Below, in pieces: positions 37,799 through 39,847 of a stretch of DNA of 64,000 bases. How positions within the stretch are numbered: the first letter of the stretch is position 1; every line of letters begins with the position of its first letter. The position numbers were made by a program, and so were the translations under genes. This DNA comes from Candidatus Thorarchaeota archaeon. Its GTDB lineage: Archaea; Asgardarchaeota; Thorarchaeia; Thorarchaeales; Thorarchaeaceae. Below the pieces are notes generated by a model, which saw only the letters and a list, made by a program, of their open reading frames with translations, was not told the origin of the DNA and searched no databases. The stretch is from contig SDNP01000001.1 of NCBI GenBank assembly GCA_004524445.1, positions 64,001 through 128,000 on the forward strand. Direction: 5' to 3'.

Positions 37799-39847
37799 AT
37801 GATGGAATTCGATATATCAAAAGCTATGAGAGTAAAGTTGTCGGATAAATTACCACCGTATCCGAAATTTGACTTGAAATACAGGAGAGCCCCTAACCGG
37901 GGATACGACCTTGATTATGACGATACAATTACAGCAGTTAAGAATGCATTAAGGTATGTGCCTAATAATCTCCAGAGTGAGGTAGCGCCAGAATTCTTGG
38001 ATGAACTAATGACCCGCGGAAGAATCTATGCATATCGCTACCGTCCTCCTGGAGTAATAAAGGCGAAGCCAATCGACGAATATGAAGGCATTCTGGAAGC
38101 CCGAGCACTGCAACTTATGATTGATAATAATCTAGATTTCGATGTTGCTTTATACCCATATGAGCTGGTAACTTATGGCGAGAGTGGTCAAGTCTGTCAG
38201 AATTGGCTTCAGTATCGACTGATCAAGAAGTATCTTGAAGTCATGACTGAAGAGCAAACGCTTGTTGTGAGTTCTGGGCATCCAGTAGGCCTATTTCCTT
38301 CTCACAGAAATGCTCCCCGAGCAATAACAACGAATGGCCTAATGGTAGGAATGTTTGACACCCCTCAAGATTTTCACAGATCAACTGCCCTCGGCGTCGC
38401 GAATTACGGACACATGTCAGCAGCTCGCTGATATGCCGTAGAAATGACCGCCGGAGGTTGGATGTACATTGGTCCACAGGGGATTGTTCACGGGACCTAC
38501 ATTACCCTGTTGAATGCTGGACGGCTCTACCTTGATATTCCTGCAGACCAAGATCTTGCTGGCGTACTCTATGTCAGCTCTGGTTTGGGAGGAATGAGTG
38601 GTGCCCAGGCAAAGGCAGTGGAGATATCTGGTGGCATTGGTGTAATTGCTGAGGTAGACAAGAGCAGAATTAAAACACGCAGTGAACAGAATTGGCTCTC
38701 TCTTTGGTCAGATGATTTAGATGAAGTCTTTGAGTGGGTGGACAAACATAGAAAGTCAAAGAGAGCGGTTTCCATTGGGTATCATGGCAATATTGTAGAC
38801 GTTTGGCAATATGTGGTGGATAATAACATCAAAGTAGAACTTGCCTCTGACCAGACATCGTGTCATGCTGCATATGAAGGCGGCTACACACCACAGGGCG
38901 TTTCGTTTGAAGAGGGTCGTGAGATACTGAAGAATGATAGAGAGAAGTTCAAGAAATTAGTGGACGAATCATTGCGTAAGCAATTTGACCTCATAAAGAC
39001 CATGACGGAACGTGGCACGCACTTCTGGGACTATGGTAATAGCTTCATGAAGGCTGTCTTCGATGCTGGTGTCAAAGAGATAGCGAAGAACAATGAGAAT
39101 ACTAAGGACGGATTCATCTTCCCGTCATATGTAGAAGACATCATGGGTCCAATCTGTTTCGACTATGGGTATGGCCCTTTCAGATGGGTTTGTCTGAGTG
39201 GGAACCATGATGACTTAATCAAGACGGATGAAGCAGCCATGTCTTGTATTGACCCTGAACGAAGAGGTCAGGATCGGGACAATTATGTATGGATTCGTGA
39301 TGCAGATGAGAATGACCTGGTTGTGGGTTCCGAGGCCCGCATATTGTATGCCGATGCAGCGGGACGGGCAACCATTGCACTGAAGTTCAATGAACTCGTA
39401 AGAAAGGGTGAGATCGGACCTATCATGCTAGGCAGAGACCATCATGACACAGGGGGCACAGATTCTCCGTTTCGAGAAACCTCCAACATTTATGACGGAA
39501 GTAGAATAACCAGCGATATGGCGCATCAATGTTGGGCAGGCAATGCCGCTCGAGGCATGACAATGTGTGTGTTGTCTAATGGTGGCGGTGTAGGAGTCAG
39601 CAAGGCAATCAATGGAGGTTTTGGACTGGTTCTTGATGGTTCTGAAAGAGTTGATGACATTATCAAATCTGCGATTAATTGGGATGTTATGGGTGGCGTT
39701 GCAAGGCGTGCTTGGGCAAGAAATCCACACGCAATAGAAACTTCTATTGATTGGAATAGTACTGTTGCCACAAAGGGCCAAATCACACTACCCTTCATTC
39801 CAGAGGAAGGCCTTATCGAACGACTGGTCAGAGAAAAACTGGACTAA
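37799..39847 (+). CDS. hutU: Urocanate hydratase, long eukaryote-like type; spliced CDS join(37799..38411,38442..39847), about 672 aa
   Basis: Two same-frame ORFs with urocanase motifs (NNLDFDVALYPYELVTYG; MTAGGWMYIGPQGIVHGT; GLGGMSGAQ; SDQTSCH; GPFRW; GRDHHD; RETSN). Removing 38412-38441 gives GVANYGQMTAGG. Confidence 0.93.
38412..38441 (+). other. 30-nt bulge-helix-bulge (tRNA-type) intron in hutU mRNA
   Basis: Central helix ACGG(38406-09)/CCGU(38436-39); bulges ACA(38410-12) and AGA(38440-42); 9-bp intron stem; exon stem; in-frame UGA at 38429-31; canonical cleavage recreates a CAA Gln codon. Confidence 0.88.

Follow-up and report, generated by a model that had tools for sequence, protein, structure and literature searches.

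A candidate bulge-helix-bulge mini-intron in the urocanase gene hutU of a Candidatus Thorarchaeota archaeon

The window analyzed here, a stretch of 64,000 nt (G000:C24:64001-128000) from a Candidatus Thorarchaeota genome of 2.79 Mb in 64 contigs with 44.6% GC (G000), carries the urocanase gene hutU (37799-39847), which is single-copy in G000, together with hutH and hutI (Table 1). hutU is interrupted in phase 1, within the Gln codon of the motif NYGQMTAGGW, by a 30-nt insert, the letters at the junction being GCG AAT TAC GGA C / ACATGTCAGCAGCTCGCTGATATGCCGTAG / AA ATG ACC. Deletion of positions 38412-38441 fuses C and AA into a Gln codon (CAA) and recovers NYGQMTAGGW, and excision of 38413-38442 gives the identical product. 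Two open reading frames (ORFs) are called at the locus, one (37781-38431) covering the N-terminal part and the other (38444-39847) the Rossmann and C-terminal parts of urocanase. The NCBIfam hutU profile (TIGR01228) is matched over positions 19-121 in exon 1 and 123-536 in exon 2; since these positions abut across the break, exactly one residue is missing there. Translation of the unspliced RNA from ATG 37802 would end at the in-frame TGA of the insert after 209 aa. An initial annotation of this DNA had described a 30-nt insert that splits the Gln codon and has a UGA in frame, leaving a fragment of ~210 aa, next to intact hutH and hutI; all of these details agree with the sequence and its translation, and both neighboring enzyme genes exceed their NCBIfam cut-offs. 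In an independent DNA run, one contig of 908 nt covers the insert without a gap and differs at 2 positions, and an assembly artefact in G000 is thereby excluded.

The insert and its flanks form a canonical bulge-helix-bulge (BHB) motif of the hBHBh' type when read by hand, and the minimum-free-energy fold is nearly identical (-33.9 kcal/mol, z = -2.7). The intron is built of 1 nt, a 23-nt hairpin, a 4-nt tail complementary to the exon and a further 2 nt. The endonuclease that acts on BHB motifs cleaves after the second base of each bulge, and this rule, when applied to the hutU motif, predicts exactly the 30-nt excision that restores the frame. A strict BHB scanner recovered the motif with a central helix of 4/4 pairs, while searches of the window with Rfam and ARAGORN gave no matches.

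Table 1. Coordinates of hutU, its predicted intron structure, the neighboring histidine-degradation genes and related features in other genomes of the family (positions without a prefix are those of the window)
Feature	Position	Strand	Remarks
hutU exon 1	37799..38411	+	204 codons and first base of the Gln codon; Pfam Urocanase_N; start MMEFDISKAM agrees with relatives
Exon-1 strand of outer helix and exon-exon extension	38381..38405	+	pairs with exon 2, 38443-38465; RNAalifold consensus
Outer helix AUU/AAU	38403-05 / 38443-45	+	continues as long exon-exon extension
Central 4-bp helix, 5' strand ACGG (exon 1)	38406..38409	+	partner CCGU (intron tail), 38436-38439
5' 3-nt bulge ACA	38410..38412	+	BHB geometry; predicted cut after 38411
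Putative BHB mini-intron, 30 nt, phase 1	38412..38441	+	same-site inserts with compensatory changes in 7 other genomes
Intron hairpin	38413..38435	+	9-bp inner helix 38413-21 / 38427-35, loop AGCUC 38422-26; 6/9 pairs change both sides across 8 genomes, 94% of cells paired
In-frame UGA of intron	38429..38431	+	same intron codon is UGA, UAG or UAA in 8/8 copies
3' 3-nt bulge AGA	38440..38442	+	predicted cut after 38441
hutU exon 2	38442..39847	+	remaining two bases of the Gln codon, then 466 codons and stop; Pfam Urocanase and Urocanase_C
hutH, histidine ammonia-lyase, intact	43123..44682	+	TIGR01225 719 bits, above cut-off; Pfam Lyase_aromatic
hutI, imidazolonepropionase, intact	48780..50051	-	TIGR01224 490 bits, above cut-off
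hutU site A (G002)	L154:176-245
hutU site A (G053)	L155:244-313
hutU site A (G101)	L156:5859-5928
hutU site A (G068)	L157:238-307
hutU site A (G018)	L141
HTH and double-LAGLIDADG ORF (G096)	L147:4763-6436
HTH and double-LAGLIDADG ORF (G002)	L154:847-2463
HTH and double-LAGLIDADG ORF (G053)	L155:899-2497
HTH and double-LAGLIDADG ORF (G101)	L156:3568-5169

Among 86 genomes of the family, 80 of which have hutU, an insert at the same site (the Gln site, or site B) was found in eight genes from five genera, whereas 72/80 lack a Gln-site intron and 67/80 lack any intron. The insert measures 30 nt in G000 and G001 (genus g1) and in G096 (g12), where the in-frame stop is UGA, in G049 and G050 (g7; UAG), and in G008 (g8) and G080 (g2), where it is UAA; in G079 (g2) it measures 29 nt. 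Family genomes without the insert read straight through NY[GA]QMTAGGW, and outside the family the insert was absent from the 78 readable loci of 80 Asgard and bacterial hutU loci, L021, which missed the search pattern, and L024, which begins at the junction, having been left out. The contig of L024 (Candidatus Thorarchaeota archaeon AB_25, MEHG01000079.1) starts exactly at CAA ATG ACA, on the exon-2 side, where either an intron or the conserved block may have interrupted the assembly. At ~40-60 codons upstream of the Gln site, hutU of G052 (G052:C15:91019-91619, L139) is matched as two pieces that overlap but differ in frame, and this change may be a frameshift or another insert.

In an alignment of the eight intron copies with 45-nt flanks (A1), 93.5% of the cells were paired in the BHB structure, compared with 28-53% when the 3' partners were slid by 1-3 columns. 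Compensatory change was seen at seven pairs that differ on both sides, six of the nine in the hairpin and one in the central helix, the latter (pair 41/72 of A1) going from C-G to U-A in three genomes. RNAalifold independently predicted the same helices plus the long exon-exon helix, in which 13-15 of 15 pairs are formed in intron-bearing genes versus a mean of 10.2 in intron-less genes. The halves C/AA and C/AG rebuild Gln in every intron copy. All eight copies keep the in-frame stop, which in three breaks base pair 51/65, and it may conceivably act as a fail-safe against translation of unspliced RNA; the evidence from its invariance is weak, however, because three of the four U-purine-purine triplets are stops.

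G000 encodes two EndA paralogues (PF01974, at C49:30457-30711 and C33:108054-108314) and one RtcB (PF01139, on C19), and many of its tRNA genes hold introns of about 30-35 nt as identified by ARAGORN. Asgard EndA has been described as an (alpha-beta)2 enzyme with a broad-specificity L1 loop (PMC5829648), and the two EndA genes of G000 fit this published type. Motif, covariation and the presence of two EndA genes and RtcB point to the tRNA-splicing pathway as the probable route by which the insert would be removed. Both hutU exons are under strong purifying selection. Between G000 and G001, the ratio of nonsynonymous to synonymous substitution (dN/dS) was 0.025 in exon 1 (its last 99 codons) and 0.031 in exon 2 (its first 300 codons), with dS of 1.0-1.3; the initial annotation had named dN/dS of both exons as a check and relaxed selection as a refutation, and values of about 0.03 in both exons give no sign of it. 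The intron is 30/30 identical between the same two genomes despite synonymous sites near saturation.

The distribution of the intron is patchy. Branching in the tree of hutU proteins agrees with the genera, and placing the intron on this tree takes seven changes, of which well-supported branches impose at least five. G096, G049 and G080 group tightly with their respective intron-less congeners G095, G022 and G092 in the exon-2 tree but not in the exon-1 tree, and within the pairs G096/G095, G049/G022 and G080/G092 the difference amounts to 21-29% upstream of the junction versus 5-11% downstream of it. Maximum-chi-square breakpoints of these three mixed pairs fell 0, -3 and +15 nt from the first exon-2 codon (chi2 68-145; 0/200 permutations), and in pairs with equal intron state no breakpoint close to the junction was significant. 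Far upstream, G096/G095 and G080/G092 return to 92-96% identity, and extra DNA lies just upstream of hutU in G096 (2.4 kb) and G080 (1.2 kb); single-switch assembly chimeras were rejected as the source of the mosaic genes on account of this resumed identity and the extra upstream DNA. Across genera, intron-bearing genes agree at 84% in the 30 nt that precede the intron but at only 63% with their own congeners, this stretch being also the exon strand of the extended helix, and linkage to the intron and structural constraint are inseparable here. Nowhere is the nucleotide sequence of hutU more conserved than in the block immediately downstream of the intron, which could serve as a crossover hot spot. 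In two of the three mixed pairs it is the intron-bearing gene that has the discordant exon 1, which points to gain. Taken together, these data make the intron look like an element exchanged between hutU alleles, by gain or loss.

We consider it highly probable that the insert is a BHB mini-intron, most likely spliced constitutively by EndA and RtcB, and that it is a passenger rather than a regulator of hutU, moved by homologous recombination. In the pre-mRNA, exon 1 (AAUUACGGAC) and the intron tail (CCGU) would pair as the 4-bp central helix with a 3-nt bulge on either side, the heteromeric (alpha-beta)2-type splicing endonuclease would cleave both bulges behind their second base, and RtcB would join the exons at the predicted junction, AAUUACGGAC followed by AAAUGACC, to give an mRNA for a urocanase of 672 aa. 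Unspliced RNA would be translated to the intron UGA and end after 209 residues; there is thus a strong case from the reading frame that full-length urocanase can be obtained only if the 30 nt leave the RNA. The biology of archaeal RtcB makes circularization of excised introns plausible, and by analogy the 30-mer released from hutU may be circularized as well. The intron would be gained or lost when hutU alleles undergo homologous recombination, one crossover falling at the site of the intron.

Several observations weigh against this reading or limit it. The eight intron copies lack independence, and conservation of the structure was scored on the very sequences that had served to derive it. 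The 29-nt copy of G079 would rule out read-through, but it has CCC at a position where the others have CCCC and may be a homopolymer assembly error. That the intron is identical in G000 and G001, and that its in-frame stop is invariant, could reflect a function beyond splicing. Finally, no RNA contig, spliced or unspliced, crosses the hutU junction in the salt-lake metatranscriptome runs compared. Five such runs contain small shares of hutU, and the three that were compared gave near-identical contigs over parts of both exons, none of them across 38412-38441; RNA contigs with an intron-less junction belong to relatives that are ~90% identical and could represent either spliced RNA or intron-less genes. 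Since no RNA contig spans the junction, we infer excision from hutU by comparison.

The initial annotation had proposed that splicing acts as an on/off switch in which urocanase output is tuned by EndA/RtcB activity and thereby coupled to the tRNA-processing state of the cell. The enzyme cannot be obtained from unspliced RNA, the stop is retained in every copy even where it disrupts pair 51/65, and the intron has remained unchanged between two genomes whose synonymous sites are almost saturated, all of which would suit a regulatory element. Against this stands the fact that 72/80 family genes, those of the nearest congeners included, have no Gln-site intron, so that regulation of the pathway does not need it; moreover, the mosaic structure with its breakpoints at the intron fits a mobile or neutral element, and the literature searched describes no regulation of BHB splicing. 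With 67 relatives free of any intron, we regard such a switch as improbable. What stands of the proposal is that urocanase depends on EndA and RtcB insofar as removal of the 30 nt appears to be required; a dedicated switch is unsupported.

Explanations that dispense with splicing fare worse. If hutU were a split gene, the exon-1 product ending in NYGHMSAAR and a second polypeptide starting at ATG 38444 would assemble into the enzyme, and a 467-aa ORF does open at that ATG. However, every intron-less urocanase has this same Met, conserved within QMTAGGW, and the ATG for this reason does not speak for a start codon; the letters before it (GCCGUAGAA) contain nothing like a Shine-Dalgarno word, the product would lack the conserved Gln, and the compensatory changes, the constant 30-nt length and the halves C/AA and C/AG that rebuild Gln would be left unexplained, which makes this arrangement very improbable. 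Inactivation of hutU by the 30-nt insertion would account for the in-frame stop and for a gene called as two ORFs, yet dN/dS is about 0.03 in both exons at dS of about 1 between two intron-bearing genomes, none of the eight copies carries a further lesion, the structure of the insert is kept by covariation, and hutH and hutI are intact. A pseudogene is in our estimation a shade less credible even than a split gene. Least credible of all, to the point where we attach scarcely any weight to it, is passage of the ribosome through the stop, with UGA decoded as selenocysteine or skipped by ribosomal bypass, to yield a urocanase enlarged by 10 residues. The length of the insert is divisible by 3 and ARAGORN reports a tRNA-SeC(tca) candidate in G000 (C49:39356-39446), but the homologous codon is UAG or UAA in five other copies, the invariant Gln would be replaced and 10 residues placed into the most conserved motif of the protein, and take-off and landing codons that match, as bypass would need, are absent.

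The initial annotation had further suggested that other split genes of the genome hide introns of the same class. In G000 itself this expectation was not borne out: a strict BHB scan of both strands returned 92,171 motifs, of which 744 join ORFs as against 688-753 in shifted controls, and a relaxed scan gave 42 cases as against 52-70 in controls, so that there was no excess in either; because the scanner also misses the relaxed site-A introns of relatives described below, this negative is weak. When motifs were filtered for the stereotyped hairpin (perfect helices, 24-40 nt), 59 remained and only that of hutU breaks and restores a long ORF; hutU was likewise the single perfect hit of the relaxed scan. 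There is no second sequence copy of the hutU intron in G000 and no convincing similarity to its tRNA introns. A second intron site was found within hutU of five relatives, on the other hand, where a frame-shifting insert of 31-32 nt lies after ACTTACGGAG/A (Tyr-Gly/Glu, phase 1; site A in Table 1, the slash marking the intron site). Site A and the Gln site have the exon word UUACGGA-N/A in common. The site-A inserts possess hairpins, but their BHB motifs are relaxed, with tails of CCGG, CCGU or ACGG. The hairpins GGAUCUAGC-AUUUC-GCUAA (L137, G080, site B) and GGAUUAG-AUUUC-CUAA (L157, G068, site A) are alike except for three 1-nt indels and, compared by eye, the introns of the two hutU sites may be related.

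The DNA inserted upstream of hutU in some relatives bears on how the intron may have moved. The extra DNA in G096 encodes a 558-aa protein with helix-turn-helix (HTH) motifs and a LAGLIDADG_3 domain, and in G002, G053 and G101 the gene directly upstream of hutU codes for a homologue that has two LAGLIDADG motifs. Paralogues occur in 37/86 genomes, and many of them lie in open frames of >1000 aa and could represent inteins or proteins of several modules; a position next to hutU is confined to these four genomes, at 4/13 intron-bearing versus 0/67 intron-less loci. A search of PDB sequences with the LAGLIDADG profile gave no match, and a search for BHB-split genes beside 14 paralogous LAGLIDADG loci in relatives yielded only noise (63 cases vs 69.5 in the control). 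In G101, the native 5' end of hutU survives as a broken, displaced remnant (L156:2201-2398 and 2672-2872) upstream of the endonuclease gene, 92-93% identical to the congener G003, whereas the functional 5' exon is only 74% identical to that of G003 and the rest of the gene 92%; in the site-A comparison of G101 with G003 the figures are 58% for the 5' part and 92% for the rest. This layout is the footprint expected if endonuclease gene, 5' exon and intron had invaded as a unit. Tracts of the co-conversion type that end at an intron site were found in relatives only, in the form of the site-B breakpoints and of site A in G101. Recent spread of a site-A cassette was rejected, as the three cassettes are only 65-73% identical.

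We therefore raise, tentatively and as a possibility that we think has the odds against it, that the hutU mini-introns are cargo of a homing-like system with a free-standing double-motif LAGLIDADG endonuclease. The endonuclease encoded upstream would cut intron-less hutU at the conserved UUAYGGA-N/A words (Tyr-Gly/Glu and Tyr-Gly/Gln), repair would copy the endonuclease gene, the 5' exon and the BHB intron from the donor, and the intron would then shield the invaded allele from more cutting. G000 has no LAGLIDADG match genome-wide, by profile or protein, and neither a LAGLIDADG nor a hutU remnant upstream of hutU; for G000, homing is consequently a hypothesis about the history of the intron, in which this genome would stand at a late stage, marked by loss of the endonuclease gene and persistence of the intron as an orphan. 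If the proposal is true, it would amount to collaborative homing of a tRNA-type intron within a cellular protein-coding gene of an Asgard archaeon. Collaborative homing in phages pairs an ORF-less group I intron with a free-standing homing endonuclease (psbA/F-CphI, nrdA/MobE). The hutU case resembles it in that four relatives have a LAGLIDADG gene beside an intron-bearing hutU, a foreign tract extends from the LAGLIDADG gene to the intron site, and one relative keeps the displaced native 5' exon as a remnant; it differs in that the intron is of the BHB kind and resides in a cellular gene, G000 is without the endonuclease gene, and the cleavage specificity is putative.

A BHB intron in a coding region is known from the cbf5 pre-mRNA of Crenarchaeota (Watanabe 2002; Yokobori 2009, PMC2738675), which is the only such report in the literature searched, and a BHB intron in the 5' untranslated region has been described for the HVO_1309 mRNA of Haloferax volcanii, in a paper that calls cbf5 the only earlier example (PMC7714728). 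We found no paper that ties hutU or Thorarchaeota to an intron of this kind, Asgard intron work in the literature searched being confined to tRNA genes. As in cbf5, the hutU intron is a short BHB intron in a coding sequence that would need the tRNA-splicing machinery, is lineage-specific with gain and loss, and occurs with an (alpha-beta)2-type EndA. Unlike cbf5, an RNA-modification enzyme, hutU encodes a catabolic enzyme and belongs here to an Asgard phylum, and neither gene nor site is orthologous; its intron is also patchier (8/80), with breakpoints at the intron and a second site in relatives, and its splicing is predicted. The mini-introns of archaeal tRNA and rRNA, including Asgard tRNA, are similar in their size of ~30 nt, build, motif and enzymes (PMC11291895; bioRxiv 10.64898/2026.10.13.758758), but the host of the hutU intron is an mRNA, so that the reading frame and translation of the unspliced form matter. 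HVO_1309 likewise provides an EndA substrate within an mRNA, and its intron affects expression (PMC7714728); it lies in the untranslated leader, however, whereas that of hutU interrupts a codon. The comparison with HAC1/XBP1 made in the initial annotation applies to the extent that both would involve cutting and ligating an mRNA outside the spliceosome. HAC1 and XBP1 are processed by IRE1 together with RtcB or a tRNA ligase, the ligase being of the RtcB type in metazoa, and it is the stress-sensor nuclease that makes their splicing conditional. The nuclease proposed for hutU is the housekeeping EndA, by contrast, and nothing indicates conditional splicing. Recombination and the endonuclease are the part that could set the hutU intron apart from the known kind.

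An intron of this type would broaden the range of substrates known for the archaeal splicing machinery, and would do so in those prokaryotes that stand nearest to eukaryotes. Annotation by gene callers will wrongly present genes of this kind as split or as pseudogenes. With 13 intron-bearing and 67 intron-less orthologues, two sites, sharply placed recombination breakpoints and, in some genomes, an endonuclease gene next door, hutU also provides a tractable case for the gain and loss of ORF-less mini-introns in protein genes.

Around hutU in the window, a 485-aa ORF between hutU and hutH (41639-43096, minus strand) has no Pfam or NCBIfam match, and four small ORFs (192, 119, 88 and 82 aa) without a Pfam match lie just upstream of hutU at 36034-37759, which is the position where some relatives hold inserted DNA.

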